From the NCBI GenBank assembly GCA_030619985.1, contig JAUXAI010000001.1, forward strand, positions 8,708 to 72,707: DNA of 64,000 nt, given 5' to 3'. Made by a program: the position numbers and the translations under genes. Numbering within the stretch: the first letter of the stretch is position 1; the number at the start of each line of letters is the position of its first letter. Shown in pieces: positions 7,840 through 63,563 of the stretch. The stretch comes from a bacterium. Lineage in GTDB: Bacteria; UBP18; UBA7526. The notes beneath the pieces are model-generated. The model was not told the DNA's origin, made no database searches, and saw only the letters and a list, made by a program, of their open reading frames with translations.

Positions 7840-7900
7840 GGCATTCAAGATGTTATGCTAAATCTGGAAAACCGAACTTTATTTCGGAAATCCAAATCAT

Positions 7901-10558: not shown

Positions 10559-10591
10559 ATAAGAAAAATAATAAGATAGGAGAGAAAGAGT

Positions 10592-37716: not shown

Positions 37717-37717
37717 T

Positions 37718-42300: not shown

Positions 42301-42303
42301 GTT

Positions 42304-42570: not shown

Positions 42571-42588
42571 CGCAGAAAAGAGGAAGAG

Positions 42589-44027: not shown

Positions 44028-44168
44028 CATGAGATTCAAAAATCCAATTTTCTCCATCCCATGCTATGATTATAATAAAGAATACTATTCTACGCTGGGG
44101 ACTAAAGAGGGAATCCTGAAGAAAGTTAAAGAAGTGATGCGCTTTGTGGGACTAAAGGAGGGGATGAA
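43757..44168. repeat. Left copy of a roughly 400-bp direct repeat (methyltransferase 3' end + start of a small ORF)
   Basis: Aligns with 45810-46210 (e.g. ...ctggctcaatggtctggagttacattttctgaccaagttcaatctcccctttgg...) with a few percent mismatches and small indels. Confidence 0.8.
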
Positions 44169-44430
44169 TGTTCTGGGCATCGGCACGGGAAGGGGCGAAT
44201 TGGCCATAGAGTATCCTAGAAAAGGATACTGGGTGAAGGCCATCGATTTCATCTCCCAGGCTACAGAACTGGCTAAGGAGAATCTGCAGGAATCCGACTT
44301 TGCCATGACGAGACCGGGTTTCTGGAATGATCTCTTTGCCCGGGTATTCTCCTTTGAAAGACATTTTATGGGAAGAATCAGGTTTCCCCTGGGGGTATCG
44401 ATCATCATCGTGGCGGAGAAGAAGCTATGA
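44029..44430 (+). CDS. Chimeric small ORF: native N-terminus (within the repeat) fused to a GC-rich methyltransferase motif-I fragment
   Basis: MRFKNPIFSIPCYDYNKEYYSTLGTKEGILKKVKEVMRFVGLKEGM | NVLGIGTGRGELAIEY.... Composition switches at about 44168. Confidence 0.4.
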   Translation: MRFKNPIFSIPCYDYNKEYYSTLGTKEGILKKVKEVMRFVGLKEGMNVLGIGTGRGELAIEYPRKGYWVKAIDFISQATELAKENLQESDFAMTRPGFWNDLFARVFSFERHFMGRIRFPLGVSIIIVAEKKL

Positions 44431-45812
44431 GGATTGCTCTTATCCGTCCTCCACGGCCGTTTGACCGTGCATTTCTTTCGATTCAGACCCCTATCAATCT
44501 GGCCGCCCTTGCCGCCTACTTAATCCGGGAGGGACACGAATGCCGGATCTGGGATTTTGAGGTGGAATCCCGGGATTTACTGGGGGAGAAGATCGCGGCA
44601 TTTCAGCCTGATTTTGCGGGTATAACCTGTATGACTCATTCCGTGGTGGAAGGGGCCCGAATAGCAGAGAGAATAAAAGGCCTTGATCCTTCGATCCGGA
44701 TTGTAACTGGCGGACCACACCCCTCGGCCCTGCCTGAACGCACACTCAAGGAGTTTGAAGCCTTTGACATAGCTGTGGTGGGGGAGGGGGAGATTCCACT
44801 GGCAGATCTCGCAGGAGGGAAAGACCTGGAAGAGATACCGGGGGTCGTTTACAGAAAAGAAGGAGAAATTGAAAAAGGGCCCGATCCCCACCTGATAGAG
44901 GATCTCGATTCTCTTCCTTTTCCTAACAGGAGTCTTTTCAGCACCGGGGGTAAGGGCTATCGCCATCCTACGCGGGGGATTTCCTTTTCTGCCCGTAAAA
45001 TCACGCAGGTGTTTACATCCAGGGGCTGTTCCTTCAAGTGTATATTCTGTGCCATTCACCCGACCCTTACTCACAGGGTCAGGTACAGAAGCGTGGATAA
45101 TGTTATGGCGGAAATTGAGGAGTGTATAAAGGAATGGGGGATTGAACATTTTATCTTCCAGGATGATATCTTTACGCTTATGCGGGAGCGGACGCTTAAG
45201 ATATGCCGGGCATTGAAGAAGTTGGGAATCTCATGGTCATGTGACGGCCGTGTGGATACAGTCGATCTGGAAATGCTTGAAGAGATGAAGAATGCAGGAT
45301 GCAGGAAGATAACCTTTGGTGTAGAGGCAGGAAGTCCTCGGATCCAGGAACTGAACAGGAAAGGTATTACGAGCGAACAAGTGAGGGACGCATTCCGTTG
45401 GGCAAGGACCGCAGGTATTGAATTGATTGAGGGTTCCTTTATGCTCTGCAGCCACCCATCCGAGACAGAAGAGGAAATAAGGATGACCATGGACCTTGCA
45501 AGGGAGGTGGAACCGGATATCTTTTTTTTATCCGTGGCGGTACCATATCCTGGAACAGAACTCTACAGGATCATGACCGAAAAGGGATATATTCATGAAC
45601 TCAACTGGCCCTCCTTCACCATGTATGCGGAGAAACCGTGCTGGAAGACAGAACATTTTTCTTCCATGGACCTTGTCCGGTCTCAGAGAAAATATCTGAA
45701 TATCTATTATTTTAGACCGAGGTATATTTTGAATAGAATAAAAAAGACAAGGAATATGAAAGATTTAGCCTATTGGATAGCACAGGGGATGAGGTATTTA
45801 TGGAACCCATGA
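44427..45812 (+). CDS. B12-binding-domain radical SAM protein on a GC-rich island
   Basis: SRGCSFKCIFCAIH. The local GC is visibly above 50%, against roughly 38-40% in the flanks. Confidence 0.75.
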   Translation: MRIALIRPPRPFDRAFLSIQTPINLAALAAYLIREGHECRIWDFEVESRDLLGEKIAAFQPDFAGITCMTHSVVEGARIAERIKGLDPSIRIVTGGPHPSALPERTLKEFEAFDIAVVGEGEIPLADLAGGKDLEEIPGVVYRKEGEIEKGPDPHLIEDLDSLPFPNRSLFSTGGKGYRHPTRGISFSARKITQVFTSRGCSFKCIFCAIHPTLTHRVRYRSVDNVMAEIEECIKEWGIEHFIFQDDIFTLMRERTLKICRALKKLGISWSCDGRVDTVDLEMLEEMKNAGCRKITFGVEAGSPRIQELNRKGITSEQVRDAFRWARTAGIELIEGSFMLCSHPSETEEEIRMTMDLAREVEPDIFFLSVAVPYPGTELYRIMTEKGYIHELNWPSFTMYAEKPCWKTEHFSSMDLVRSQRKYLNIYYFRPRYILNRIKKTRNMKDLAYWIAQGMRYLWNP

Positions 45813-49785: not shown

Positions 49786-50892
49786 GTGAAAATGCCAATA
49801 TTAGCTAAATTCAAACACCAGCGAACTGAAATCCTAATTTTCTCATTTTTTGGTATTCTGAGTCTAATGGCTACCCATCCTATGATCTTTAAAATGAAGA
49901 GTCATATCTACGGATATCCTGGTGATCCCTTAGGAAGTATATGGAGAATTTGGTGGTATAAATTTTCCTGGGTACATCATATTTCTTCTCGGTTTATTAT
50001 CATAATAGCCCATCCCTTTGGAGTTGATTTGAGTCAGGAAATAAGCAGTGCTCCTTTTAATTATTTAGTTTTCTTAATGGCTTTACTTAGTAATGAAATC
50101 TTTACTTATAATTTTATTCTTCTATGTGGGTTTCTACTATCAGCAATTACTATGTACTTCTTGGTTTACCACTTGACCAGAAATAGGGGAGCAAGTACTA
50201 TGGCTGGAGTGCTCTATGCCTTCTGTCCTTGGCACTTTGCTCATGCCGGGCAACATCTTTCCTTGGCTTCTATTCAATGGCTACCCCTTTACGGACTATT
50301 TCTCTTTAAACTGTTTAATAAAAGAACCTATAGAAATGCCTTTCTCTGTGCTCTGGGATTTTCCTTAGTCATTTTTACTGATTTTTCCTATGTCTTTCTA
50401 ATTTCGATTTTTACTACTGCCTTCATTGTATGGGGGTTATGGTTTACCTTGGGTCCCAACCGTAGATTCTACCCTACAAGTTCTAAGGCCTCACTTTTAA
50501 AGACAAGTATAGTAATTCTGGTAACTTTTCTCATTGCTTTGGCTATGATACTTCCTTTTACCTATTCTACTTTTAAGACCGCTCTTACGCTGCCTAAAGT
50601 AGAGTCCATGGCTATCTTAAGATACGCCAAGCCTTTTCGAGATCTTACTTCTAATTCTGCCCGGCCTTTGGGTTATCTTTTACCCTCTCAAGATAACCCA
50701 TTTTTTGGCAGGGTCACTAAAAAATTCATTAAAAGTCCCTTCTATGGTAGCCATCCTACGGAACATACCCTTTATCTGGGATGGGTGGGGATTGTGCTTT
50801 CGATTGTCGCGATAAGGGAATGGAGGAGAAAAAATAGGAAGCAGAGGATAGAGAAAAGAGGTCATCAGGTCATCAGGTCATCAGGTCATTAA
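49786..50892 (+). CDS. Polytopic membrane protein, N-terminal part of a gene apparently split by a tandem-repeat tract
   Basis: 368 aa, about 9 TM helices. It ends ...GHQVIRSSGH* inside the octamer array. Confidence 0.5.
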   Translation: MKMPILAKFKHQRTEILIFSFFGILSLMATHPMIFKMKSHIYGYPGDPLGSIWRIWWYKFSWVHHISSRFIIIIAHPFGVDLSQEISSAPFNYLVFLMALLSNEIFTYNFILLCGFLLSAITMYFLVYHLTRNRGASTMAGVLYAFCPWHFAHAGQHLSLASIQWLPLYGLFLFKLFNKRTYRNAFLCALGFSLVIFTDFSYVFLISIFTTAFIVWGLWFTLGPNRRFYPTSSKASLLKTSIVILVTFLIALAMILPFTYSTFKTALTLPKVESMAILRYAKPFRDLTSNSARPLGYLLPSQDNPFFGRVTKKFIKSPFYGSHPTEHTLYLGWVGIVLSIVAIREWRRKNRKQRIEKRGHQVIRSSGH

Positions 50893-50974: not shown

Positions 50975-51658
50975 GTGGCTTTGCTATTTTCTCATTCCCC
51001 CTATACAGAAATTGGTCCTTTTCGAATACTCTTCCCTTCTTACTTTATGTATAGAATTGCTCCTATGTTTCGCTGTTATGCCCGATTTGGTATTGTTGTT
51101 ATGCTTTGTGTGAGTGCCTTAGCAGGGATTGGTCTTGCTTCAATTTTAGAGAAGATAAGGAGTAGTAAAAGAAGAAGAATTTTTCTTTCTGTAATTTTTT
51201 TACTTATTTTTATTGAATTTGCTCCTGCTCTGCCAGCCCCCATGGTTAATGCAGTTGATCCTCCTCCAGTCTATGAATGGCTCGCTAAACAAGAAGGCGA
51301 TTTTACTATTGCTGAGTATCCCTTAGAAGATGATCAGGAGTACTTCTTTTGGCAGAGGATCCACCAGAAGAGATTAGTCAATGGTGCTCAACCAGGAACC
51401 TACGCTGATGAGGTAAGGAAAGAGATCATTGATATCTTGAAGCCAGAAACTCCGGGTATTCTAAAATATTTAGGAACGAGGTATATCATTTTTCATCCTG
51501 ATAAGTATCTGAAGAGTGAGGATGTCCCAGTAATTGGCGAGGTTCCAGATGTAAGCAAGCAAAGGGGGCTAAAACTCATTAAGACTTTTGAAGATGCGGG
51601 AGTCTATGAGGTGGTAGTGGAGCCGATTAAGCCCAAGACGCGAATTAACGCGAACTGA
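50975..51658 (+). CDS. C-terminal part of the split membrane protein (its frame is open from 50852)
   Basis: The frame is open upstream through both repeat arrays to 50852, overlapping the first ORF by 41 nt. It continues with TM helices and then a soluble domain. Confidence 0.45.
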   Translation: MALLFSHSPYTEIGPFRILFPSYFMYRIAPMFRCYARFGIVVMLCVSALAGIGLASILEKIRSSKRRRIFLSVIFLLIFIEFAPALPAPMVNAVDPPPVYEWLAKQEGDFTIAEYPLEDDQEYFFWQRIHQKRLVNGAQPGTYADEVRKEIIDILKPETPGILKYLGTRYIIFHPDKYLKSEDVPVIGEVPDVSKQRGLKLIKTFEDAGVYEVVVEPIKPKTRINAN

Positions 51659-51938: not shown

Positions 51939-52772
51939 ATGAGAAGGACATTAGGTTTTGTTTTAATCTTGGGTGTTTTAGTGGTAAGTGGATGCGTGAG
52001 AAGGGAACTTCTTGTTCTCCCTGAGGCACCAGAGGTAGGGGTGTTAAAGCCGGTTACCAGGCCAGGGACAGCGGCCTTCAGGGGAGGGGAAAAACTAACC
52101 TTCTTAGCTAAGTTCCGGTTTATTCCTGCTGGAGAGGTGACTATGGAAGTAAGGGAGATGAGATATAGGGGCCATGAGGTCTACAGTCCTTTAATAACTA
52201 TGAAGGCGGCTAAGTTATTTTCTTTTTTCTGTCCAGCAGAGGTAAATATCAGGTCCTATCTCGATGCCCGTACCTTAGATAGTCTACGTTATGAGGAGCA
52301 TACCATAATGGGTCGCCATACCTATGAACGCTTGACGGTCTATGACCAGAGGAATCGATTGGCGACGTATGATGCGCCAGTCTATGATAGAATGGGCAAG
52401 ACAATCAGGATTTATAAGAAGAAGGTAAGGATTCCACCCCATACCCAGGATATGTTATCTGCCTTCTATTATATTCGAACCCAGGAATTAAAAGAGGGAA
52501 AGATTCTAACCATCAATGCCAATGAGCGACACAAGAATTATAGAGTGAAGATAAAGGTCTTGAGGAAAGAGAAGGTTACTGTTCCAGCAGGAACCTTCCT
52601 CACCTGGGTGATAGAGCCGATTTCCATACAGAGATTGGATAAAGAAAAAGAAGGGGAAAAAGGAACAGGTCTTATCTATCTCAGCGCAGATGAGAGGAAG
52701 CTACCAGTCTTAATGAAAGCCAAGACAAAATTAGGCTCGGTTACTGTTCAACTAATAGACGTTAAACTTTAA
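51939..52772 (+). CDS. DUF3108-like lipoprotein
   Basis: Signal peptide with lipobox (VVSGC); beta-rich body consistent with DUF3108 family members. Confidence 0.45.
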   Translation: MRRTLGFVLILGVLVVSGCVRRELLVLPEAPEVGVLKPVTRPGTAAFRGGEKLTFLAKFRFIPAGEVTMEVREMRYRGHEVYSPLITMKAAKLFSFFCPAEVNIRSYLDARTLDSLRYEEHTIMGRHTYERLTVYDQRNRLATYDAPVYDRMGKTIRIYKKKVRIPPHTQDMLSAFYYIRTQELKEGKILTINANERHKNYRVKIKVLRKEKVTVPAGTFLTWVIEPISIQRLDKEKEGEKGTGLIYLSADERKLPVLMKAKTKLGSVTVQLIDVKL

Positions 52773-52774
52773 CG

Positions 52775-52915
52775 CGAATAATCGCGAACTGCAAAGCAAA
52801 GAACGAAACAAAGTAAACAGGACGCGAATTAACGCGAATAAAAGAGGGACGCGAATAGACGCGAACTGAAAAGCGAGGACGCAAGATAATCGGGACGCGA
52901 ATCAACGCGAATGAA
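52775..52915. repeat. ACGCGAA-type oligomer arrays including 45-nt direct-repeat copy 2
   Basis: ttaacgcgaataatcgcgaactg...gacgcgaattaacgcgaat...cgcgaactgaaaagcgaggacgcaagataatcgggacgcgaatc. Confidence 0.8.
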
Positions 52916-53306
52916 AACAGAAACAAAAATATTATATAAGGAGTTAGCTTACCAAATAGTAGGAGCTTTTTACGAAGTATATAATACTCTGGGGCCAGGT
53001 TTTAAAGAGTCCATTTACCATAACGCTTTAGCCATTGAATTTACTTTACGGAAAATATCCTTTGAAACTAATAAGAGACTCACCATCAAGTATAAAAAGC
53101 AAAAGGTTGGAATTTATGAACCAGACTTCGTTATAGATAATAAGATTCTTGTTGAAATCAAAGCTGTTCCCAGGATGCCCAGAGTTTACGAAAAGCAGTT
53201 ATATTACTATCTGAAGGGTACAGAATATAAATTGGGTTACTTAGTAAATTTTGGAGCTGATAAATTAGAAATCAAGCGTAGAATCTACGAAAGGATTCGC
53301 GTTTGA
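52911..53306 (+). CDS. GxxExxY family protein
   Basis: AYQIVGAFYEVYNTLGPGFKESIYHNAL..., the family-defining G-x2-E-x2-Y N-terminus; 131 aa. Confidence 0.75.
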   Translation: MKTETKILYKELAYQIVGAFYEVYNTLGPGFKESIYHNALAIEFTLRKISFETNKRLTIKYKKQKVGIYEPDFVIDNKILVEIKAVPRMPRVYEKQLYYYLKGTEYKLGYLVNFGADKLEIKRRIYERIRV

Positions 53307-53318
53307 AGGAGGTTTGAG

Positions 53319-53747
53319 ATGGCTTTTGTATTACTCTTTGCTTCTATATTTTTGGCAGTGGTGGGACAGTTATTGCTGAAGAAGGGGATGTGGACGGTGG
53401 GGATTGTCTATTTCCATTTCTCCCATCTCTGGTCTACCTTCCTTAAAGTCTTTTCTAACTGGTATGTTATCTTTGGATTCGTCTTTTTTGTTTTAAGTGC
53501 CCTTCTGTGGTTGGCGGTCTTATCAAGATTGGATATTAGCAAGGCCTATCCCATGGTGGCCGCGGGCTATATTCTGGTTCTTTTAGCTTCCAGGTGGGGA
53601 ATAATTGTGACTAGAGAACCAGTCTCTCCCATCAGATGGATAGGGGCCCTGGTGATTTGTTTCGGTGTTTACCTTATTTCGCGCACTGATTTCGCGCAGT
53701 TGATTAAGGACTTATCAACTTTAATCTTCTGGAGGAAGCATGGTTAA
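53319..53747 (+). CDS. Small EamA/SMR-like membrane protein (ArnE/ArnF-like undecaprenyl-phosphate-sugar flippase subunit family)
   Basis: 142 aa, 4 TM helices, GQLLLKKG motif near the N-terminus. Confidence 0.5.
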   Translation: MAFVLLFASIFLAVVGQLLLKKGMWTVGIVYFHFSHLWSTFLKVFSNWYVIFGFVFFVLSALLWLAVLSRLDISKAYPMVAAGYILVLLASRWGIIVTREPVSPIRWIGALVICFGVYLISRTDFAQLIKDLSTLIFWRKHG

Positions 53748-54819
53748 GGCGGTCATTATTGCTGGGGGGAGGGGAGAGAGGTTTTGGCCTAAGAGTAGGA
53801 TTAGAACACCGAAGCAACTCCTTCCCATAGCCTCTAAAAAGAGTATGATCTATGAGACGGTGAAGAGGATAAGCCCTTTGGTGACATCAAAGGATATTCT
53901 GATTATTGCCAGAAGAGGTTTGGGGGCAAGAATCAAGAAAGATCTTCCTAAGATCCCCACTAAGAATATTATCTCCGAGCCCTTTGGGCGGGATACTGCA
54001 GCAGCAGTCGGCTTAGGAGCAATATTAGCGGAGAAGAAAGACCCAGATAGCGTTATGGTTGTCTTACCCGCAGATCATGTAATTGGTGAGCCGAAGAAGT
54101 TTCTAAAAACTTTAAGAGTGGCCATCAAGGCTGCCCGAGATACAGATAATTTAGTGACTATGGGAATCAAACCTAACAGGCCAGAGACGGGGTATGGGTA
54201 TATAGAAATTGGTTCGCCAGTTCGCCAGTTCGCCAGTTCGCCAGTTTATGAGGTGAAGAGGTTTGCAGAAAAGCCGGATAGGAAAAAAGCATTAAAGTTT
54301 ATGAAGAGCGGGAGGTATCTCTGGAATAGTGGAATGTTTATCTGGAGAACCTCTGTTATCCTGAAAGCGATGAGAAAACATATGCCCCAACTATATAGAG
54401 GCCTTTTGGAGATTCAGGAGGCCTTGGGTACTTCTCAAGAAAAGAAAGCGATTGAAAAGGTCTACAAAAAGTTGGACAAAATATCCATAGATTATGGTAT
54501 AATGGAGAAGGCAAAAAATACATTGGTGGTGAAGGCAGATTATCTCTGGGATGATGTGGGGAACTGGCAGGCCCTGGAAAGAATCTCAGTTAAAGATAAA
54601 GAGAGGAATATTACCAAGGGAGAAGTCTCTTCTTTAGATACGAGAGATTCCATTATTCTCTGTGACAAAGGAATGGTAGGAACAATCGGTATAAAAGATT
54701 TAATCATCATCTCAACAGAAGATGCTACTTTAATCTGCCCTAAAGATAGGGCCCAGGAAGTAAAGGAACTGGTCCACAAGCTTGGTAAGAATAAGAAATT
54801 AAAGAAATACATTAAGTAA
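53740..54819 (+). CDS. manC: Mannose-1-phosphate guanylyltransferase (nucleotidyltransferase domain only)
   Basis: AVIIAGGRGERFWPKSR...PKQLLPI...GYGYIE; 359 aa. It carries an in-frame octamer repeat insertion. Confidence 0.75.
   Translation: MVKAVIIAGGRGERFWPKSRIRTPKQLLPIASKKSMIYETVKRISPLVTSKDILIIARRGLGARIKKDLPKIPTKNIISEPFGRDTAAAVGLGAILAEKKDPDSVMVVLPADHVIGEPKKFLKTLRVAIKAARDTDNLVTMGIKPNRPETGYGYIEIGSPVRQFASSPVYEVKRFAEKPDRKKALKFMKSGRYLWNSGMFIWRTSVILKAMRKHMPQLYRGLLEIQEALGTSQEKKAIEKVYKKLDKISIDYGIMEKAKNTLVVKADYLWDDVGNWQALERISVKDKERNITKGEVSSLDTRDSIILCDKGMVGTIGIKDLIIISTEDATLICPKDRAQEVKELVHKLGKNKKLKKYIK
54213..54246. repeat. Octamer array CGCCAGTT x4 in frame inside manC
   Basis: It encodes SPVRQFASSPV. 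A related CCAGTTTG array lies intergenically at 51766-51800. Confidence 0.8.
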
Positions 54820-54910
54820 GGTTCACGGTTAACGGTTTACGGTTAACCGTAAAAAAACGGTAAACGGTAAACAGCGACAAACAAGGTGAGGAGCGGGTAA
54901 ACTGTAAACT
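54820..54910. repeat. Inverted heptamer-array hairpin (CGGTTAA/CGGTTTA ... CGGTAAA)
   Basis: cacggttaacggtttacggttaaccgtaaaaaaacggtaaacggtaaacag; it contains the perfect palindrome acggttaaccgt. Confidence 0.8.
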
Positions 54911-54932
54911 ATCCGAGCGAAGCGAGGAGAGA

Positions 54933-56345
54933 ATGGAGAGAATAAAGTTTGGTACTGATGGCTGGAGAGGAGTGATCTCAAAGGATTTTACCTTTGAGAA
55001 TGTCAAGATCGTCTCCCAGGCCATGGCCGATTATCTAAAGAAAGAAAAGATTGGGGAGAGGGAGATCATCATAGGATATGATGCTCGTTTTCTCTCTAAG
55101 GAGTATGCCCAGCTTGTGGCCTCTGTCTTAGCCGGGAATGGAATAAGGGCTATCTTGAGCGACAGAATCCAGCCCGTTCCTTGTGTCTGTTTCGCCATAA
55201 AGGATAGGGAGGCTGCTGGGGGGATAATGATTACTGCCAGCCATAACCCCTTTCAATATAATGGAATAAAGTTCAAAGGAGAGTATGCGGGAAGCGCAGA
55301 TGATACAACAACTAAGAAGATCGAGAATTTCTTGTATAAGAATAAACCGAAAGAAATAGATTTTGAGGCGGAAGAAAAGAAAGAACTCATCCGGACAATA
55401 GATCTTACTCCGCCCTATCTCCAGTTTCTAAAATCCTTCGTCAATTTGGAATTAATAAAAGAAGCGTCGCTTAAAATAATTGTTGATTCCATGTATGGTG
55501 CAGGAAAGGATTATACTGCCCAGGTCTTAAAAGAAGGGAAGTGTCAGGTCATCACTATTCGGGGCGAGGAGAACCCCTCTTTCAGGGGAGTGAACCCCGA
55601 GCCCATTGCTCAGAACTTAGGCGCCTTAATAGATAAGATAAAGGAAGAGAAGGCAGATTTAGGACTGGCCACAGATGGGGATGGGGATCGGTTAGGAGTC
55701 ATGGATAGTGAAGGCAACTTTGTCAATCCCCATCAGGTTCTTTCATTACTTACCCTTCATTTGATTGAGAGCAGGGGATGGTCGGGAGGAATAGTGAAGA
55801 CCATATCTACCACCTCCTTGTTGAATAAAATAGCAGAAAAGTATAAGAGAAAAATCTATAAGACCCCGGTAGGCTTTAAGTATATCTGTGAGTTGATGCT
55901 AAAGAAGGATATCCTGATTGGAGGAGAAGAATCAGGAGGGATCGGAGTCAAGAATCATGTTCCGGATAGGGATGGTCTATTATCTGGTCTACTTCTTCTT
56001 GAGATGTTAGCCTTGAAGAAGAAACCCTTATCCCAGATTCAGGAGGAGATGAGAAAAGAGTTTGGCACCTATCTTTATCAAAGGATTGATAGTGAGTACC
56101 CTCTGGACAAAAGAGACATCTTGATTTCTACCTTAAAGAAAAATCCACCAAAAGAATTGGCGGATATTGAGGTAAGAAAAATAGATGCTTCAGATGGAAT
56201 AAAGTTTATTCTGGAGGATAATAGCTGGCTCTTGTTTCGCACCTCGGGGACAGAACCCATCATTAGAATCTATGCTGAATCAGACGAAGAAGGAAAGTTA
56301 GAAAAGATTATGGAAGCAGGAAAGGAGTTGGCCTTCTCTATCTAA
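54933..56345 (+). CDS. manB: Phosphomannomutase/phosphoglucomutase
   Basis: Active-site TASHNP, the GEESGG sugar-binding loop, 470 aa. Confidence 0.85.
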   Translation: MERIKFGTDGWRGVISKDFTFENVKIVSQAMADYLKKEKIGEREIIIGYDARFLSKEYAQLVASVLAGNGIRAILSDRIQPVPCVCFAIKDREAAGGIMITASHNPFQYNGIKFKGEYAGSADDTTTKKIENFLYKNKPKEIDFEAEEKKELIRTIDLTPPYLQFLKSFVNLELIKEASLKIIVDSMYGAGKDYTAQVLKEGKCQVITIRGEENPSFRGVNPEPIAQNLGALIDKIKEEKADLGLATDGDGDRLGVMDSEGNFVNPHQVLSLLTLHLIESRGWSGGIVKTISTTSLLNKIAEKYKRKIYKTPVGFKYICELMLKKDILIGGEESGGIGVKNHVPDRDGLLSGLLLLEMLALKKKPLSQIQEEMRKEFGTYLYQRIDSEYPLDKRDILISTLKKNPPKELADIEVRKIDASDGIKFILEDNSWLLFRTSGTEPIIRIYAESDEEGKLEKIMEAGKELAFSI

Positions 56346-56475
56346 AGTTAACAAGGATACAAGTTAACAAGAAACTTATCAACTTATTTCTGAGTGGTAA
56401 CGAAGAAACAAGGTTCTGCGAAGCAGGTTCTTATTAACTTGTCAACTTGTCAACTAATCAACTTGTCAACTTTTT
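56346..56475. repeat. Inverted oligomer-repeat hairpin (ACAAGTTAACAAGG family), empty form
   Basis: agttaacaaggatacaagttaacaag ... cttgtcaacttgtcaactaatcaacttgtcaac. Confidence 0.8.
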
Positions 56476-56500
56476 AACTCACTGAGTAAGGAGAATTCGC

Positions 56501-57742
56501 ATGAGATACAAAGTGGCTCTACGCAATGAGACCAGGCACAGGCTGCGTACCAAGATAAAGAGGGCAGACATCGTGGTTGGTATTCCCTGTTACTATGATG
56601 AGGATACCATCGGCTATGTCATCCAGCAGGCAGCAGAAGGATTGGCCAAGTATTTCCCTAAGTATAAGAAGGTCATCCTGGTCTCTGACGGTGGCTCCTT
56701 AGACGATACCAGGGAGATCATCATCGCTGCCCCAGTTCCCAAGGTAGTGGATAAGATGTTCTTCATCTATAGGGGCCTTCCAGGAAAGGGGACCGCCTTC
56801 AGATCTGTCTTCGAAGCAAGCAAGATATTAGGAGCAAAGGTCGTTCTAACCCTGGATTCTGATTTAAGAAGCATTACTCCCCTCTGGATAAAGCTCATGG
56901 CCCATCCCGTCTTAAGCGGGAAGTATGATTATGTTACTCCTTACTATCTTCGCCATAAATACGACGGAACGATATCGAATAACATCACCTATCCCTTAAT
57001 CAGGGCCTTATATGGCCTAAGGATCAGACAGCCCATGGGAGGAGACTTCGCTCTCTCTGGAGACTTAGCCAAGGCCTACCTCATAGAGGATGTCTGGATG
57101 GGGGTTGTGGCTCGCTTCGGTATTGATAGCTGGATGACTACTGAAGCCATAAATAAGGGATATAGGATATGTCAAGTAGCCCTGGGAACAAAGATTCACA
57201 ATCCCAAGGAGCCTTCCCTGAAATTAGGTTCTATGTTTCGAGAAGTGGTGGGAACCTTATTCAGCCTAATGGAGAAGTATGAATATAATTGGATGCAGGT
57301 AAAGGGTTCCCAACCAGTAAAAACCTATGACCATCGCCAGATTGTGGAACCCGAAGCACTCTTAGTAGATGTAGAAGGGATGATCGGCCAGCTTGCCCAT
57401 CACTACTCCGACTGTCATGACATCTGGAGGGAGATCATGCCTGAGGATAACTTTCGGGCGGTAAGGGAACTGGCCCATACCAAAGAGATAAGAAACTTTA
57501 AGTTCCCTCTCGACCTCTGGGCAAGGATTGTCTATGACTTTGCCGTTGCCTATCATCAGAAGGAAATCTCCCCAGATGATGTTTTGGACCTTTTTGCCCC
57601 CCTCTACTTTGCCAAGACCGGCTCCTTTGCTCAGGAGACCTTGAGGATGAGCAGTAAGGAGGCGGAGAGGGTAGTTGAGGCCCAAGCCAAGGCCTTTGAG
57701 AAAGAAAAACCCTATTTGATCGAGAGGTGGGAAGAGGTATGA
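56501..57742 (+). CDS. GT78-like glycosyltransferase resembling mannosylglycerate synthase (candidate mannosyl-glucosylglycerate or mannosylglycerate synthase)
   Basis: Motif order PGKGTAF..LDSDL..ITPLWI...QPMGGDF...FGIDSW, as I recall it for Rhodothermus-type mannosylglycerate synthase (MGS); the assignment is from memory. About 400 aa GT-A domain plus helical C-terminal extension. Confidence 0.5.
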   Translation: MRYKVALRNETRHRLRTKIKRADIVVGIPCYYDEDTIGYVIQQAAEGLAKYFPKYKKVILVSDGGSLDDTREIIIAAPVPKVVDKMFFIYRGLPGKGTAFRSVFEASKILGAKVVLTLDSDLRSITPLWIKLMAHPVLSGKYDYVTPYYLRHKYDGTISNNITYPLIRALYGLRIRQPMGGDFALSGDLAKAYLIEDVWMGVVARFGIDSWMTTEAINKGYRICQVALGTKIHNPKEPSLKLGSMFREVVGTLFSLMEKYEYNWMQVKGSQPVKTYDHRQIVEPEALLVDVEGMIGQLAHHYSDCHDIWREIMPEDNFRAVRELAHTKEIRNFKFPLDLWARIVYDFAVAYHQKEISPDDVLDLFAPLYFAKTGSFAQETLRMSSKEAERVVEAQAKAFEKEKPYLIERWEEV

Positions 57743-58731
57743 GCAAGGTAGAAAAGTGGTTTAAGAACCGCACCTTCCATCACTCCCAGTTCTCTGACAT
57801 CAAGGAACTGGTGAGATTAAAGAGGAAGAAAAACCTAACCATAAGCGTAGGCCTTCCCACCCTGAATGAGGCAGAGACCATTGCTACGGAGCTTATCGTG
57901 ATCAAGAGTGAGCTCATGGATAAGCATCACTTAATAGATGAGTTAGCCATCATAGACTCTGGCTCAACAGATAAGACCAGAGAGATTGCAGCAAAGTATG
58001 GGGCAGATGTCTATTTGACAGACGATTATTTAAAAGAGGAAGGAATCTATTCTGGCAAAGGAGAGAACCTTTGGAAGAGTCTCTATCTCCTAAAAGGAGA
58101 TATCATCCTATGGCTCGATGCCGACATTAAGAACATCCATCCCAAGTTTGTCTATGGGTTACTGGGTCCCCTTCTAACCAATAGTCGAATAGGTTATGTC
58201 AAGGCCTTCTATGAGAGACCAATAAAGTTAGAGACAGAGAAGACCCTGAGGGCTTCTGGAGGAGGGAGGGTGACAGCACTTATGCTTCGTCCTATCTTCA
58301 ATCTTTTCTTTCCTGAACTTTCGGGACTTATTCAACCCTTAAGTGGAGAGTATGCCGGAAGAAGGGAAATACTAGAGAAAGTTCCCTTCTTTATCGGCTA
58401 TGGGGTAGAGACAGGACTGTTAATCGACATCTATAAGAAGTTTGGTTTAAACTCCATTGCCCAGGTCGACCTGGATCAACGCATCCACCGGAATCATACC
58501 CTTCCCACATTATCTAAGATGGCCTTCACTATCCTGCAGGTGGCTCTAAACCGTGCTGGGGATCTGTGGAAACTGAAGATGTTAGAAGAATTAAATCCCA
58601 GCATGAGGCTCATTAAAAGGAAGGGGAATAGGTATTCCTTTGAGATCTTTGAGAGGAAGGTCGTGGAGCGCCCCCCCATGATTACTGTGAAAGCCTATCG
58701 GGAGAAAAGGAAGAAGCAAAAGAGATCCTAA
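57739..58731 (+). CDS. gpgS: Glucosyl-3-phosphoglycerate synthase (GT81)
   Basis: GKGENLWKSL, GGGRVTAL, QPLSGEYAG, GYGVETGLLID, IAQVDLDQRIHRN. These blocks align one-to-one with the characteristic mycobacterial GpgS motifs; ATGA overlap with the upstream gene. Confidence 0.7.
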   Translation: MSKVEKWFKNRTFHHSQFSDIKELVRLKRKKNLTISVGLPTLNEAETIATELIVIKSELMDKHHLIDELAIIDSGSTDKTREIAAKYGADVYLTDDYLKEEGIYSGKGENLWKSLYLLKGDIILWLDADIKNIHPKFVYGLLGPLLTNSRIGYVKAFYERPIKLETEKTLRASGGGRVTALMLRPIFNLFFPELSGLIQPLSGEYAGRREILEKVPFFIGYGVETGLLIDIYKKFGLNSIAQVDLDQRIHRNHTLPTLSKMAFTILQVALNRAGDLWKLKMLEELNPSMRLIKRKGNRYSFEIFERKVVERPPMITVKAYREKRKKQKRS

Positions 58732-58740
58732 TAAAAAAGA

Positions 58741-58806
58741 ACCCCGCACCTTTTATCTATTCAAAGTAGCAACCTAAAGAAATGAATATTAAAAAGGTGC
58801 GGGGCT
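58741..58806 (+). terminator. Conserved stem-loop element, copy 2 (ACCCCGCACCTTTT ... AAAAGGTGCGGGG), then T-run
   Basis: Same stem and partly conserved loop (agaaatgaata) as 6258-6308; followed by cttttc. Confidence 0.6.
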
Positions 58807-58817
58807 TTTCTCTATCT

Positions 58818-58928
58818 AAATTCTGATTATCTTCTTTTCTTCTTTCCCTTCCTTGCCTTTTTCTTCTTTCTCCTTACAACCTTCTTTCTTTTCACAACCT
58901 TCTTTTTCCTCTTCGCCTTCTTCTTTCT
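58818..58928 (-). CDS. Candidate 36-aa hyper-basic peptide (MAKRKKKAKRKKKVVKRKKVVRRKKKKARKGKKKRR)
   Basis: A minus-strand GTG start preceded by AAGGAGAGGAGGG 6 nt upstream. It lies in a 150-nt polypyrimidine (plus-strand) tract, and its purine-rich composition could be coincidental. Confidence 0.25.
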
Positions 58929-59054
58929 TTTCGCCACTTTTTCCCTCCTCTCCTTAAATTTAGTTTAATAATATCACACTAAATCTCCATTTGTCAAGCC
59001 TTTTTTTGATTTTTATTGAATTTATTGATAGAATGGAAAAGGAAAGAGAATGAG

Positions 59055-59630
59055 ATGACCAAGATCATCCTGGTGCGCCATGGGGAGACGGCCTGGACTC
59101 CAGTAAATAGGATTCAAGGTTGGCTGGATATAGAGTTAAATGAGCGAGGGCTAAGACAGGCAAAAAGAATTGCAAGAGAATTAAAGAGAAAGAAGATAGA
59201 CGCCATCTATTCTAGTGAACTCTCTCGGGCTTATGAGACAGCAAAGATTATTGCCAAACCACATAAATTAAGAGTAAAGAAGGATATTAATCTCAATGAG
59301 CTTAACCAGGGAAAGTGGCAAGGGCTTCTGGTAAAAGAGGCCAGAAGAAAGTATAAGGAACTTTACCGAAGATGGGAAGAAGAACCCTTAAGCGTCAGGC
59401 CTCCTGGAGGGGAGAGCATCCTGGACCTTTACGAAAGGGCAATCCATATTTTAAGAGAGATTACCAAGAAATATCCCAAAGGGAAGGTAGTCATCGTGGG
59501 ACATAAGGTGATAAATACGGTATTAAAATGCTATTTGTTGGGAATAAATCTCTCTAATGTCTGGAAACTACTGCCTAAGGAAGCAAGCTGGGAGGAAATC
59601 AAAATTCCCCAATCAAGAGTCAGAAAATGA
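59055..59630 (+). CDS. Histidine phosphatase (phosphoglycerate-mutase superfamily), candidate glucosyl-3-phosphoglycerate phosphatase
   Basis: LVRHGET with catalytic His, about 190 aa, adjacent to gpgS. Mycobacterial GpgP belongs to this superfamily. ATG 59055 is preferred; the six-frame ORF starts at 59016. Confidence 0.55.
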   Translation: MTKIILVRHGETAWTPVNRIQGWLDIELNERGLRQAKRIARELKRKKIDAIYSSELSRAYETAKIIAKPHKLRVKKDINLNELNQGKWQGLLVKEARRKYKELYRRWEEEPLSVRPPGGESILDLYERAIHILREITKKYPKGKVVIVGHKVINTVLKCYLLGINLSNVWKLLPKEASWEEIKIPQSRVRK

Positions 59631-59672
59631 GTTAACAAGTATACAAGTTAACAAGGATACAAGTTGACAAGG
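59631..59672. repeat. Forward oligomer array (GTTAACAAG / ATACAAGTTAACAAGG) left of a four-helix-bundle gene
   Basis: gttaacaagtatacaagttaacaaggatacaagttgacaagg. Confidence 0.8.
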
Positions 59673-59682
59673 AAGGTGGAAG

Positions 59683-60057
59683 ATGGAAAGAGGTTTTGAA
59701 GGTTTAAAGGTTTGGCAATTGGGAAGGAAATTCCGCAAAAAGATTTATGAGATAAGTAGAAAGTTCCCAAAGGAAGAGATATATTGCCTAGTTCAGCAAA
59801 TTCGTAAAGCAGCAATATCCATAACTGCCAATATCACAGAAGGTCATGGTAGGTATCATTATCAGGAAAATATTCAGTTTTGTCGGGTTTCAAGAGGCTC
59901 GATAAATGAAGTCTTAGATCATCTATATACTGCTATAGACGAAAAATATATTGTTGAAAAAGAGTTCCAGCAATTATACTCTCAGGGCAGAGAAGTAGAA
60001 AAAGTGCTCAACGGTTACATCGGTTACCTTCACAAAAGACTCAGCGAGAAAAGTTAA
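59683..60057 (+). CDS. Four-helix-bundle protein (TIGR02436; '23S rRNA intervening-sequence protein' family)
   Basis: 124 aa ...LKVWQLGRKFRKKIYEISRKFPKEE...ITANITEGHGRYHYQENIQFCRVSRGSINEVLDHL... Confidence 0.8.
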   Translation: MERGFEGLKVWQLGRKFRKKIYEISRKFPKEEIYCLVQQIRKAAISITANITEGHGRYHYQENIQFCRVSRGSINEVLDHLYTAIDEKYIVEKEFQQLYSQGREVEKVLNGYIGYLHKRLSEKS

Positions 60058-60094
60058 ACTTGTCAACTAATCAACTTGTTAACTTATCAACTAT
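60056..60094. repeat. Reverse-complement oligomer array right of the four-helix-bundle gene
   Basis: aacttgtcaactaatcaacttgttaacttatcaactatc, the reverse complement of the 59631-59672 family. Confidence 0.8.
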
Positions 60095-60110
60095 CTGAAA
60101 GGAGTTTATC

Positions 60111-61331
60111 ATGTCTAAACCAAGAATTGCTATCGTTCATTATTCCTCTCCTCCAGTAATCGGAGGGGTGGAGTTCATCTTGGAGGCTCATGCCAGAGAG
60201 ATGCTCAAGCATGGCTATAAGGTGAAGGTTGTTGCAGGGAGAGGGGAGAAATTTCATAAGAAGATCCCGATTGTTATTATTCCCGAGGCGGATTCTCTCT
60301 CAAAGACGAATAAGAGAATAGATGCGGAACTTGAGAAGAATCTTGTGAGTGCTAAATTTCATCAATTAACAGATAGAATCTACGGGAAACTAACTCGAGA
60401 GTTTAAAAATGTCGATCTTGTCATCATCCATAATGTCCTGACCATGCACTTCAACCTCCCCCTTACTGCTGCTTTAGAGAGATATATTAGAGAACATAAG
60501 AAGAAAAAGTACATCGCCTGGTGCCACGATGCCACCTTCAAGGACCCGGTCTATAAGAAGAAGGCCAAGAATAAATACCCCTGGAATGTGATCTCCAAGC
60601 CCATTCCAAAAGTAAGGTATGTTGCCATCTCTTGTGAGCGCCAGAAGCAGCTCTCTCACCTCTTCCGAGTCAATCCCAAGAAGATAACCGTGGTTCCTGA
60701 CGGAATCGATCATAAAAGCTTCTTAGATTTAAATGGGGATGCCCTGGAAGTCTTCAAGAGGTTTAATCTCTTTAATCAGGATCTGGTTATGCTTCTGCCC
60801 ACCAGGATTGTGAAAAGAAAAAATCTGGAACTGGCAATAAAGATCACTAAGGAATTGAATAAGATACTCAAGGCTGTTTTAATTATTACTGGGCCTCCTG
60901 ATCCCCATAATATCGACTCTATGAGGTATTATCGCTCTCTGAAAGACTTAAGGAATAAATCCCGGATGAAGAGGAAGGTCATCTTTCTCTATGAGGAGGG
61001 AATAAAGGTAGGATATTCTATGCTGAGGAGCCTCTATCTATTATGTGATATGCTCCTATTTCCCAGTGCCCAGGAAGGCTTCGGCATCCCCCTATTGGAA
61101 TCTGGATTGGTTAACCTTCCCATCGCTTGTGCCAACATCCCTCCCTTGAAGGAAGTGGGAGAGAAAGACGTTCACTATCTTGACTTAAAGAAGAACCCCA
61201 GAGAACTTGCCTCAGGGATAATTAAGTATTACCAAAGACAGCCCACTATCCCTATGTTCAAGAAGGTATTGAGGAACTATACCTGGGAATCCATCTTCAC
61301 GCAAAAGATAGAACCATTGTTAAAGGGGTGA
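60111..61331 (+). CDS. GT4 family glycosyltransferase (GT-B)
   Basis: N-terminal IAIVHYSSPPVIGGVEFIL; C-terminal ...FPSAQEGFGIPLLESGLVNLPIAC (the E-x7-E region). Confidence 0.65.
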   Translation: MSKPRIAIVHYSSPPVIGGVEFILEAHAREMLKHGYKVKVVAGRGEKFHKKIPIVIIPEADSLSKTNKRIDAELEKNLVSAKFHQLTDRIYGKLTREFKNVDLVIIHNVLTMHFNLPLTAALERYIREHKKKKYIAWCHDATFKDPVYKKKAKNKYPWNVISKPIPKVRYVAISCERQKQLSHLFRVNPKKITVVPDGIDHKSFLDLNGDALEVFKRFNLFNQDLVMLLPTRIVKRKNLELAIKITKELNKILKAVLIITGPPDPHNIDSMRYYRSLKDLRNKSRMKRKVIFLYEEGIKVGYSMLRSLYLLCDMLLFPSAQEGFGIPLLESGLVNLPIACANIPPLKEVGEKDVHYLDLKKNPRELASGIIKYYQRQPTIPMFKKVLRNYTWESIFTQKIEPLLKG

Positions 61332-61362
61332 CAGGGGTGGCAAGGGTGACAGGGGTAACAGG
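61322..61362. repeat. Forward nonamer-like array (GTGACAGGG/GTGGCAAGG/GTAACAGGG) left of the second four-helix-bundle gene
   Basis: ggggtgacaggggtggcaagggtgacaggggtaacaggg. Confidence 0.8.
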
Positions 61363-61363
61363 G

Positions 61364-61732
61364 ATGAAAAGTAAAAGAGAGCCCGGCTATAAGAGATTAA
61401 TTGTCTGGCAGAATACCTATAAACTGCGCAAATTAATCTATAAGATAACCGCTCACTTCCCAAGAAGTGAAATGCGACGGGTCAGTCATATGAGAGATAG
61501 TGCCCGCTCAGCAAAGCAGAATATCCAAGAGGGTTATAAGCGTGCCTCTCGTGGAATATATATTCACTTTTTAACCATTTCTCAGGGCTCTTTAGGAGAA
61601 TTGAAGGGCGATGTAGAAGATTCTTTTGAAGATGGATTGATGAGTAAGGAAGAATATGAAGAAGTAGATGCTTTAATCTGCAAAACCGATTATTTATTTA
61701 CTCGCCTGATCAATTCATTAAGGAAGAAATAA
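61364..61732 (+). CDS. Four-helix-bundle protein (TIGR02436 family)
   Basis: MKSKREPGYKRLIVWQNTYKLRKLIYKITAHFPRSE...AKQNIQEGYKRASRGIYIHFLTISQGSLGEL...; ATG 61364 is preferred over the six-frame ORF start at 61328 inside the repeat. Confidence 0.8.
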   Translation: MKSKREPGYKRLIVWQNTYKLRKLIYKITAHFPRSEMRRVSHMRDSARSAKQNIQEGYKRASRGIYIHFLTISQGSLGELKGDVEDSFEDGLMSKEEYEEVDALICKTDYLFTRLINSLRKK

Positions 61733-61785
61733 ACCCTTGTACCCCTTATATCCCTTGTTCCCCCCGTAACCCCTGTGGAGTACTA
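61733..61785. repeat. Reverse-complement array right of the second four-helix-bundle gene
   Basis: aaacccttgtaccccttatatcccttgttccccccgtaacccctgtgg, the reverse complement of the ACAGGGG/ACAAGGG units. Confidence 0.75.
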
Positions 61786-61787
61786 GA

Positions 61788-63563
61788 ATGACTACCGAGA
61801 GGATTAGAAATTTCTCTATTATTGCCCATATCGACCATGGAAAGAGCACCTTGGCAGATAGACTATTGGAGTATACCAAGACCCTTCCTTCCCGAAAGAT
61901 GAGGGAGCAGGTATTGGATGAGATGGAACTTGAGAGGGAGAGGGGGATTACCATAAAGGCCAAAGCGGTGAGACTGAGGTACAAAGATTATATATTAAAT
62001 CTCATAGATACTCCGGGCCATGTGGACTTCTCCTATGAGGTCTCCAGGTCTCTTGCTGCCTGTGAGGGAGTCTTATTGATCATCGATGCCAGCCAGGGGG
62101 TTCAGGCCCAGACCTTAGCCAATGCCTACTTAGCAAGGGAAGCCAACCTCGCCATCATCCCCATTATAAATAAGATAGACCTTCCCAATGCCCGGCCAGA
62201 AGAGACAGAGAAACAGATAAAAGATGTCCTGGGATTAGAGGACCCCATCTTTACCAGTGCCAAGAAGGGAATGGGAACAGAGGATGTCCTGGAAGCAATA
62301 GTTGAGAGGATCCCCCCACCAAAAGGGGAGATCAATAAGCCCCTTCAGGCCTTGATCTTCGACTCTATCTATAATCCCTATCAGGGGGTAGTGGTCTATA
62401 TCCGGGTTGTTCAGGGTTCCATTAAACCAAGAGATAGGATTAGGCTTATGGGAAGGGGCAGGGATTTTGAAGTGAATGAAGTGGGGATCTTCTCTCCAGA
62501 GATGAGAAAGGTGGAGGGGCTCTCTCCAGGTGAGGTGGGCTACCTAATGGCGAATATAAAGAACCTTCAAGATGCCAAGGTGGGGGATACTATTACTGGT
62601 GCCCAAAATCCGGCCCAGAAGTCTCTTCCCGGATATAAGGAGGTGAAGCCCTTTGTCTTCGCCAGCCTCTATCCTGTAAGAAGCGAGGATTTTGGATCAC
62701 TGAAGGAGGCTTTGGAGAAGCTGAAACTGAATGACGCTTCCTTTAGTTATATAGAGGAAAGCTCCCCAGCCTTGGGCCCTGGTTTCAGATGCGGATTCTT
62801 AGGCCTCTTACATATGGAGATCGTCCAAGAGAGATTGGAGAGGGAGTATGACCTGGATCTGATAACTACGGCACCCAGCGTGGTCTACAGAGTAATCACC
62901 AAAGAGGGTGAAATTAAAAGGGTAGAGAACCCTTCTAGACTCCCTTCTCCCGCTGAGATTAAAGAGATTCAGGAGCCCTATATTAAGGCGATCATCATTA
63001 CTCCCGCCGAATACTTAGGACCCATTATGCAGTTAGTTCAGGGAAGAAGGGGAGTATATAGAGATACCAGGTATCTGGCCCCCAATACCGCCTCTTTGAC
63101 CTATGAATTCCCCCTATCTGAGGTGATCCTCGACTTCTATGATAGGCTGAAGTCTGTCTCCCGAGGTTATGCCTCCTTTGACTATGAGCATATCGGTTAT
63201 CGAAAGACGGATTCGGTAAAGGTCGATGTCCTCTTAAATAATGAGAAGGTGGAAGGATTATCCTTCATTACCCATAAGGAAAAGGCCTATCATAGGGCAA
63301 GCGAGTTGGTAGCAAGATTAAAGGAGGTCATTCCTCAGCACCTCTTTCCTGTTGCCATACAGGGGGCGATAGGGAAGAAAATCATCGCCCGGGAGACAGT
63401 AAAAGCTTTGAGAAAGGATGTCACCGCTCCCTTATACGGAGGGGATGTCACCCGGAAGAGGAAGCTTTTGGAGAAGCAGAAGAGGGGTAAGAAGAGAATG
63501 AAGAGAATTGGAAAAGTCTCTCTTCCCCAAGAAGCTTTCTTAAGCATTCTGAAGGTGGATTAG
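61788..63563 (+). CDS. lepA: Elongation factor 4 (translational GTPase LepA)
   Basis: [17 protein letters not shown]1 motif, [12 protein letters not shown]; 591 aa with LepA-specific C-terminal domain. Confidence 0.9.

Follow-up and report, generated by a model that had tools for sequence, protein, structure and literature searches.

A candidate gene cluster for the synthesis of glucosylglycerate, and possibly mannosylglucosylglycerate, in a bacterium of the UBP18 lineage

Introduction

Glucosylglycerate (GG) and mannosylglucosylglycerate (MGG) are rare stress-protective solutes and, to our knowledge, the gene sets for their synthesis come from only a handful of cultured organisms. Here, we analyze a plus-strand gene cluster in a 64,000-nt stretch of DNA from a bacterium of the lineage UBP18 (assembly GCA_030619985.1, contig JAUXAI010000001.1; hereafter the window, to whose positions all coordinates refer). 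The core of this cluster encodes a homolog of the GG synthase Ggs (open reading frame (ORF) 56501), a glucosyl-3-phosphoglycerate (GPG) synthase (GpgS; 57739), a histidine phosphatase (59055) and a glycosyltransferase (GT) of family GT4 (60111), and is preceded by the genes manC and manB. Our analysis suggests that the cluster very probably makes GG. On balance, we favor the reading that it is a GG operon of the Persephonella and Petrotoga kind that has been rebuilt from different parts, with the GT4 protein as mannosyltransferase.

In the systems described so far, GgS condenses ADP-glucose and D-glycerate to GG, while MGG is made by the GpgS–MggA–MggB and GgS–MggS routes, in which GT4 mannosyltransferases use GDP-mannose (PMC3736172). 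A dual pathway for GG has been described in Persephonella (PMC3736172) and, as in the window, Persephonella marina has a Ggs ortholog (49% identity), gpgS and a phosphatase gene in one cluster, giving two routes to GG. However, the Persephonella cluster encodes a Methanococcoides-type GpgS of ~400 aa and a HAD-type GpgP next to a glycerate-kinase-like gene, while the window has an actinobacterial-type GT81 GpgS of ~330 aa, a histidine phosphatase and no glycerate-kinase-like gene, and adds the GT4 gene and manB/manC. Petrotoga mobilis, with both GgS-type and GpgS-type entries, makes GG or GPG first and then engages a GT4 enzyme with GDP-mannose (PMC3736172). There, as in the window, gpgS adjoins a GT4 gene, and the best curated match of the window GT4 protein is to the MggS enzyme; the window differs in that it has a single GT4 gene, that the product scores 97 bits with the MggS model and thus far under its cut-off of 640 bits, and that all genes are clustered with GDP-mannose supply genes. 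Rhodopirellula baltica similarly combines GpgS, a GT4 enzyme and a dedicated phosphatase for the phosphorylated intermediate, but its genes are scattered, MggB is a HAD hydrolase and a Ggs homolog is absent (PMC3736172).

Two further systems share individual parts with the window. Mycobacterial GpgS (Rv1208) and GpgP (Rv2419c) belong to the same GpgS subfamily (NF010496, E 1e-60) and the same RHG phosphatase superfamily as the window proteins; however, the mycobacterial genes are not adjacent, GG feeds the synthesis of methylglucose lipopolysaccharides (MGLP), and the phosphatase of the window resembles PspA more closely than Rv2419c. Mannosylglycerate synthase (MGS; family GT78) of Rhodothermus marinus has the two-domain architecture and DXD/His metal site of 56501 and is its top structural match, but the two proteins are only 18% identical, and the nearest characterized enzyme to 56501 transfers glucose and not mannose. 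Each enzyme of the cluster has a known relative, and the combination appears to be new in four respects: Ggs occurs together with a GpgS of the actinobacterial type, a histidine phosphatase stands in for the HAD-type GpgP or MggB, there is only one GT4 protein, which is remotely similar to MggS, and GDP-mannose genes are part of the cluster.

Results

Conservation of the gene cluster

Family labels were checked against Pfam, NCBIfam and the Protein Data Bank (PDB). Relatives of 56501, i.e. members of the Ggs family, are present in at least 591 stretches in species-representative genomes; the best 80 were retrieved and their flanks surveyed with tblastn. We refer to the 81%-identical relative as L001, to the 62% relative as L002/L003, to a Nitrospirota and a WOR-3 metagenome-assembled genome (MAG) as L045 and L009, respectively, and to loci of Anaerolineae and Ardenticatenia as L007, L010 and L062.

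A first-pass annotation of this DNA had described six plus-strand genes, for an ArnE/F-like transporter, ManC, ManB, 56501, GpgS and a histidine phosphatase, as a candidate operon for a GG-derived solute. The ORF listing contains all six genes at the coordinates then given, within a plus-strand gene run from 53319 to 63563. The annotation had closed the unit at the end of the phosphatase gene; however, the unit extends to the GT4 gene at 60111-61331, and the likelier enzyme for a second sugar was therefore left out. Downstream of the phosphatase gene, the order is a four-helix-bundle gene, the GT4 gene, a second four-helix-bundle gene and lepA. Together with a small antisense ORF (58827-58937), the two inserted four-helix-bundle genes break up the stretch.

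The gene order is kept in the relatives at 81% and 62% identity. L001 lacks both four-helix-bundle genes, and its phosphatase and GT4 genes share a 4-bp overlap. In L002/L003, manC and manB are followed by genes for a metallophosphoesterase, Ggs, GpgS, an unknown protein of 359 aa and the GT4 protein, and then by lepA. In the window, the ATG of gpgS overlaps the stop codon of 56501 as ATGA. A flanking gpgS is present in 36 of the 80 loci, and is of the Methanococcoides/Persephonella type in 22 and of the actinobacterial type in 14. The former is usually accompanied by a gene for a HAD phosphatase of the MpgP family (16 loci), and the Aquificota loci and the Persephonella locus have the order gpgP–glycerate-kinase-like–ggs–gpgS. 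Because the order is conserved in relatives and Ggs-like and GpgS genes are paired in this many loci, the arrangement is not due to chance. Many of the loci adjoin gpgS and a GPG phosphatase gene in the absence of manC and manB nearby, and this linkage to gpgS without mannose genes argues that the Ggs family works in GG synthesis itself.

ORF 56501 is most likely a GG synthase

The ORF at 56501-57742 (plus strand) encodes a 413-aa protein with a GT-A domain and a C-terminal helical domain. Across 412 of the 413 residues, this protein is 49% identical (E 8e-141) to P0265, which has the NCBI name “glucosylglycerate synthase Ggs [Persephonella]” and was recovered via the Hydrogenothermaceae homolog L067. 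In an alignment of 238 sequences, 83 columns show ≥95% conservation among the 232 family members outside the window clade, and 56501 has the consensus residue in 78 of them; the five exceptions (T159S, I179M, D237E, G277D and G301H) are conservative or in C-terminal loops. A DSD motif (D119-S-D121) and H233 are invariant across the Ggs family. Because of the full-length identity to Persephonella Ggs and the match at 78 of the 83 conserved positions, we read 56501 as a Ggs-type enzyme that is most likely a one-step GG synthase and not a GG mannosyltransferase.

Earlier, 56501 had been annotated as GT78-like, and this holds for its fold but not for its sequence. An AF2 model of 56501 calculated from 49 homologs had a pLDDT of 93. 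In Foldseek searches with this model, the top matches were to Rhodothermus MGS (2y4j, 2bo4 and 2y4k; E 6e-16 to 1e-14 over ~405 columns) with TM-scores of 0.67-0.76 at 18% identity, i.e. 56501 has the two-domain fold of GT78, followed by GpgS (E ~3e-10, ~270 columns, 25% identity). By contrast, the Pfam model MGS_GT (PF21969) scored 21.7 bits, under its cut-off of 27 bits, placing 56501 outside GT78 by sequence, and phmmer searches of the PDB at E ≤1 gave no match to MGS chains but exclusively GT81 GpgS chains (E 2.6e-10 and weaker). The NCBIfam GpgS model also matched weakly (E 1e-15).

The first-pass annotation had gone further and proposed that 56501 mannosylates GG with GDP-mannose, and that MGG synthesis by a GT78-type enzyme would be novel. 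The MGS-like fold, the weak MGS_GT match and the adjoining manC and manB fit this idea; we nevertheless regard it as very improbable because 56501 has an ortholog-level likeness to a characterized Ggs and a near-complete set of the invariant residues, because many genomes link the family to gpgS and gpgP with neither mannose genes nor a GT4 gene close by, and because the GT4 protein of the same unit is the better candidate for a mannosyltransferase. With 56501 read as Ggs, the suggested novelty falls away.

GpgS and a histidine phosphatase

The gene immediately downstream (57739-58731, plus strand) had been annotated as gpgS, and its product classifies by sequence as a bona fide GpgS of the actinobacterial GT81 type, scoring 372.5 bits against NF010496 (cut-off 262 bits) over 303 of 307 model positions. 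Its PDB matches are Rubrobacter MpgS/GpgS (3f1y, E 5e-68) and M. tuberculosis GpgS (E 1.4e-60). The motifs LDADI (DAD), SGGGRVT and QRIHRN can be read in both the translation and the 3f1y alignment; we take these to correspond to the DXD motif, the GGGRVT loop for 3-phosphoglycerate and the RxHRN motif with the metal-binding His in the structures of M. tuberculosis GpgS.

The best PDB match being to the dual-specificity Rubrobacter enzyme raises the question of whether the donor carries glucose or mannose. It also bears on a scheme in which mannosylglycerate and GG would be made in parallel, either with 56501 as an MGS acting on glycerate or with the GT81 protein acting like a Rubrobacter MpgS on 3-phosphoglycerate, followed by the phosphatase. 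This scheme would agree with the stronger match to 3f1y than to M. tuberculosis GpgS, the full MGS fold of 56501, clade-specific substitutions in conserved Ggs motifs and the adjoining GDP-mannose genes. However, 56501 is 49% identical to Ggs and 18% identical to MGS, the GT81 protein has the M. tuberculosis-like RxHRN and not the RQNRH variant of Rubrobacter, and the conserved GT4 protein would be left without a role. Parallel synthesis is, therefore, distinctly unlikely.

The phosphatase gene (59055-59630, plus strand) encodes a 191-aa protein of branch 1 of the histidine phosphatases (PF00300 His_Phos_1, E 5e-57) in which the catalytic motifs VRHGET (RHG) and GHKV (GH) are intact. The first-pass annotation had named this protein as a candidate GpgP. 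The domain, the motifs and the adjacency to gpgS are in agreement with this name; however, the closest characterized relatives are PspA-type phosphatases and not GpgP, followed by PhoE-type phosphatases, and the label GpgP rests on synteny. The match to the PspA model NF045917 (178 bits) is itself under the cut-off of 350 bits. A general phosphoglycerate mutase of the dPGM type, which had been raised as a possible pitfall, was rejected because the best matches are phosphatases; the protein is also short. Phosphatases of the 59055 type adjoin an actinobacterial-type GpgS in L001, L007, L010, L014, L036, L045 and L089. Because of this recurrent association across phyla and the precedent of a histidine-phosphatase GpgP in mycobacteria (PMC3240985), we propose by analogy that 59055 would dephosphorylate GPG or a phosphorylated disaccharide-glycerate. 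Thus, as had been annotated, GpgS and the histidine phosphatase would together form a route to GG. We found no glycerate-kinase-like gene and no HAD-type gpgP in the 64-kb window.

In L002/L003, the histidine phosphatase is replaced by a 240-aa metallophosphoesterase (7249-7971; YaeI/LpxG-like, 78 bits) and a 359-aa protein (10249-11328) with a faint GalT-like match (E 4e-4). These genes may be a non-orthologous substitute for the phosphatase step.

A GT4 protein distantly related to MggS

The GT4 gene (60111-61331, plus strand), which was absent from the first-pass annotation, encodes a 406-aa retaining GT with an EX7E motif. Its top NCBIfam match is MggS (NF041101; 97.4 bits, E 8e-28), with residues 5-341 aligning to positions 2-349 of the 431 in the model. 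Because this score is far under the cut-off of 640 bits, the protein is, as judged by this model, not an MggS ortholog or equivalog member. All other GT4 models scored ≤47 bits, and nearly all of them align only from ~residue 170, i.e. with the donor-binding half. MggS is the sole curated match that spans both Rossmann domains, including the N-terminal acceptor domain, and the GT4 homologs behave alike in this respect. An AF2 model (pLDDT 93) was closest to BshA, MshA, SPS (sucrose-phosphate synthase) and GlgM in Foldseek searches against the PDB; these are generic GT4 enzymes with small soluble acceptors, and with a poor global superposition (rmsd ~18 Å) the comparison was non-discriminating.

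GT4 homologs adjoin GpgS, with or without the histidine phosphatase, in ten loci (L001, L002, L007, L009, L010, L014, L045, L062, L087 and L089). The order Ggs–GpgS–histidine phosphatase–GT4 recurs in L014 and in the Nitrospirota MAG L045, the WOR-3 MAG L009 has Ggs–GpgS–GT4 without the phosphatase, and rearranged versions of this four-gene module are found in Anaerolineae and Ardenticatenia (L007, L010 and L062). Within the 80 loci, the GT4 gene is confined to loci with an actinobacterial-type gpgS (6 of 14, versus 0 of 22 with the Methanococcoides type). A further GT4 homolog with 45% identity adjoins a Ggs-like protein of 35% identity, and GT4 homologs with 41-42% identity adjoin fusions of universal stress protein (Usp) domains and GpgS, in one case also with a histidine phosphatase. 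More widely, the GT4 family has thousands of homologs in metagenomes, and in Nitrospirota, WOR-3, Chloroflexota and the window lineage it is linked to a histidine phosphatase and a GpgS of the actinobacterial type. Because of the overlap with the phosphatase gene in L001 and the recurring module order in other phyla, the GT4 gene belongs to the same unit as the genes for Ggs, GpgS and the phosphatase. Based on the match to MggS, we propose that its product is a second-sugar transferase, putatively a mannosyltransferase, acting on GG or GPG.

In the Chloroflexota-type loci L007, L036, L062, L087 and L089, the actinobacterial-type GpgS forms the C-terminal part of a fusion protein of ~630 aa that begins with Usp domains (e.g. 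7233-9149 in L087). These fusions adjoin the GT4 gene and, in some loci, a histidine phosphatase gene. In an all-against-all clustering of the neighbors of the module, the four core families and the Usp–GpgS fusion were the only conserved genes detected.

An actinobacterial-type GpgS together with a histidine-phosphatase GpgP is the pair that initiates MGLP synthesis in mycobacteria (PMC3240985), and the GT4 protein weakly matches glgA_Coryne and MSMEG_0565-type GTs (44-47 bits). Both observations would fit a scheme in which GG primes an MGLP-like intracellular polysaccharide or glycolipid that the GT4 protein would elongate, with no free solutes being formed. However, genes for methyltransferases, acyltransferases or branching enzymes are not among the conserved neighbors of the module, the MggS match is twice as strong as the matches to these GTs, and the Usp–GpgS fusions of the Chloroflexota homologs point to a role in stress; we therefore consider a primer function very unlikely.

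The GDP-mannose genes and the identity of the second sugar

The annotation of manC and manB held up in our analyses. The manC gene (53740-54819, plus strand) encodes a mannose-1-phosphate guanylyltransferase with an NTP_transferase domain (PF00483) and a beta-helix (PF22640); no phosphomannose isomerase (PMI) domain was found with Pfam. The protein has the GGRGERFWP motif and classifies as ManC, with TIGR01479 matching across the guanylyltransferase part (333 bits) and GDP-mannose pyrophosphorylase of Thermotoga maritima as its closest solved relative (2x5s, E 7e-81). The coding sequence of manC also holds a perfect tandem repeat with an 8-nt unit (GTTCGCCA x4; 54212-54243). The ManB-type phosphohexomutase (54933-56345, plus strand) has four PGM_PMM domains and the motifs TASHNP and DGDGDR, and its closest solved relative is a putative phosphomannomutase of Thermus (1tuo, E 2e-89). 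By sequence, ManB is assigned to the phosphoglucomutase/phosphomannomutase (PGM/PMM) class, and its substrate may be the mannose or the glucose form.

Upstream of manC, the gene at 53319-53747 (plus strand), which overlaps manC by 8 nt, encodes a small membrane protein of 142 aa with four transmembrane segments. In the first-pass annotation, this protein was an ArnE/F-like transporter; ArnF and then ArnE are indeed its best matches, but with 54 bits for ArnF (NF002816, cut-off 99 bits) and 30 bits for ArnE (cut-off 92 bits) both are sub-threshold, as are the Pfam matches to EamA and TMEM234. The gene is kept in L001 (75%) and absent from L002. A place of this protein in the solute pathway is doubtful, and it may instead serve an upstream envelope cluster with polyprenyl-phosphate-sugar and GT-C functions. 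The envelope-type genes upstream encode an ArnC-like GT2 (82 bits), an AftD-like GT-C and a DUF6311-type protein.

Alternatively, then, the GG module would be as proposed but the GT4 protein would add glucose or another sugar, giving glucosylglucosylglycerate, diglucosylglycerate or the primer of a larger glycan, while manC, manB and the ArnE/F-like gene serve the envelope cluster. The envelope-type genes upstream and the overlap of the ArnF-like gene with manC are consistent with this alternative, as is the lack of manC and manB within 10 kb of the four-gene module in other phyla. In addition, Persephonella is known to contain alpha(1-6)glucosyl-glucosylglycerate. Against this, L002/L003 keep manC–manB attached directly upstream of the module in the absence of envelope genes, the genes upstream being recG, a methyltransferase gene and coaD, i.e. 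unrelated housekeeping functions, and the sole two-domain curated match of the GT4 protein is to the mannosyltransferase MggS. Thus, we consider a sugar other than mannose unlikely.

Two side observations concern the upstream region. The genes at 35614-45812 encode two B12-binding radical SAM proteins, one of them fused to a methyltransferase, as well as a class I methyltransferase, the AftD-like GT-C and the ArnC-like GT2; this cluster may serve to modify envelope glycans or lipids and could draw on the same manC and manB. The polytopic DUF6311-type protein is encoded by one gene of 595 aa in L001 (2638-4425) and by two ORFs in the window (368 aa, 49786-50892, and 227 aa, 50975-51658), and this split could be due to a frameshift, a pseudogene or an assembly error.

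Transcription signals and inserted elements

Between gpgS and the antisense ORF lies a hairpin flanked by A/T runs (58742-58805; inverted repeat I3) with a minimum free energy of -28.4 kcal/mol (z = -5.6; 0 of 200 shuffles), which is likely a bidirectional terminator for gpgS and the antisense ORF. A scan of 52500-62000 with Rfam gave sub-threshold chance matches near this hairpin only, and no riboswitch or leader was found. The antisense ORF (58827-58937, minus strand; 36 aa; MAKRKKKAKRKKK...; MAKRKKKAKRKKKVVKRKK...) is outside the pathway. Located between gpgS and the phosphatase gene, it encodes an extremely lysine- and arginine-rich, polybasic peptide. It is preceded by a sigma70-like promoter on the minus strand (58997-58968; TTGACA-18-TATTAT with TG, 11/12), and a 49-aa counterpart is present in L001 at the same place and on the same strand (12301-12450).

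An inverted-repeat element with arrays of 8-nt period occurs in three copies. Two of these are “empty” (2860-2975 and 56345-56493), while the third (59627-59671 and 60056-60092) encloses a gene. The left arm is ATACAAGTTRACAAG... and the right arm (C/T)AACTTGT x4-8; the pattern CAACTTGTCAAC has 17 matches at ≤2 mismatches versus 3.3 expected. The intergenic copy at 56345-56493 (ACAAGTTAACAAG... / CAACTTGT x n) accounts for the 155-nt spacer between manB and ggs, which is 33 nt in L001. The gene enclosed by the inverted arrays of the third copy (59683-60057, plus strand) encodes a four-helix-bundle (“23S rRNA IVS”) protein (PF05635, 118 bits; TIGR02436); being absent in L001, it is an accessory insertion outside the pathway, and the repeat structure has the appearance of a small element, mobile or cassette-like, with the four-helix-bundle gene as its cargo. 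The second four-helix-bundle gene (61364-61732, plus strand) is also absent in L001 and outside the pathway. It is preceded by four or five 9-nt GGGTGACAG repeats (61326-61370) that begin within the region of the GT4 stop codon, and its start is probably at 61364. Upstream of the ArnE/F-like gene, a GxxExxY/PD-(D/E)XK gene (52911-53306), absent from L001, is preceded by three copies of GGGACGCGAATnAACGCGAA (52809-52916).

Discussion

Based on the family assignments, the intact catalytic motifs and the conserved gene linkage reported here, we suggest a model in which GG would be made by two routes. In the first, 56501 would condense NDP-glucose and D-glycerate to GG in one step. In the second, GpgS would make GPG from NDP-glucose and 3-phosphoglycerate, and the phosphatase 59055 would remove the phosphate. 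The GT4 protein would then add a second hexose, either to GG, as MggS does, or to GPG, as MggA does, in which case the phosphatase would act on the product of the GT4 reaction. Because ManB and ManC are encoded directly upstream and can supply GDP-mannose, this second sugar is most likely mannose, in which case the end product would be MGG. In this model, we infer all substrates and the order of the steps and, above all, the sugar that is transferred by the GT4 protein. MGG, which had been suggested in the first-pass annotation from the adjoining GDP-mannose supply genes, is a reasonable candidate but we name it as the final product only tentatively.

Several observations weigh against this model. 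The Ggs clade of the window is the most divergent of the family (mean 47% identity), and the clade-specific exchanges T159S, I179M and D237E fall within the three most conserved motifs. For the phosphatase, the match to M. tuberculosis GpgP (4pz9, E 1.5e-17) is weaker than that to PspA, a metal-independent phosphoserine phosphatase of Hydrogenobacter (4ij5, E 2.7e-45), and the 64-kb window has no glycerate-forming gene. The GT4 protein reaches 97.4 bits where the MggS model requires 640. Also, the window, L001 and L002/L003 are the only cases in which the module comes with manC and manB, and in the window these two genes are preceded by the ArnE/F-like gene and genes for the ArnC-like GT2 and GT-C proteins. 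Because the ArnF-like gene overlaps manC and the ArnC-like GT2, AftD-like GT-C and DUF6311-type proteins are encoded upstream, manC and manB may serve envelope glycosylation instead. Finally, because the hairpin and the conserved antisense ORF with its promoter part gpgS from the phosphatase gene, the cluster probably gives rise to two transcripts.

The two characterized MggA proteins share only 27% identity (PMC3736172), and sequence distance to MggA, therefore, says little about function. The GT4 family could, as we cautiously put forward, represent a widespread, unrecognized third class of enzymes that glycosylate GG or GPG and would be distinct from the MggA of Petrotoga and Rhodopirellula and from MggS.

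Overall, the cluster is a new combination of known parts and does not involve a new enzymatic principle. Nevertheless, its four-gene core recurs in several uncultured phyla. In 2013, the distribution of MggA was called “extremely rare”; if the GT4 proteins do form such a third class, the occurrence of MGG or of a new diglycosyl-glycerate would greatly exceed what this distribution suggests. If confirmed, the GT4 protein would make a usable marker with which to trace diglycosyl-glycerate solutes in environmental genomes, and would provide new enzymes for making these protein stabilizers.

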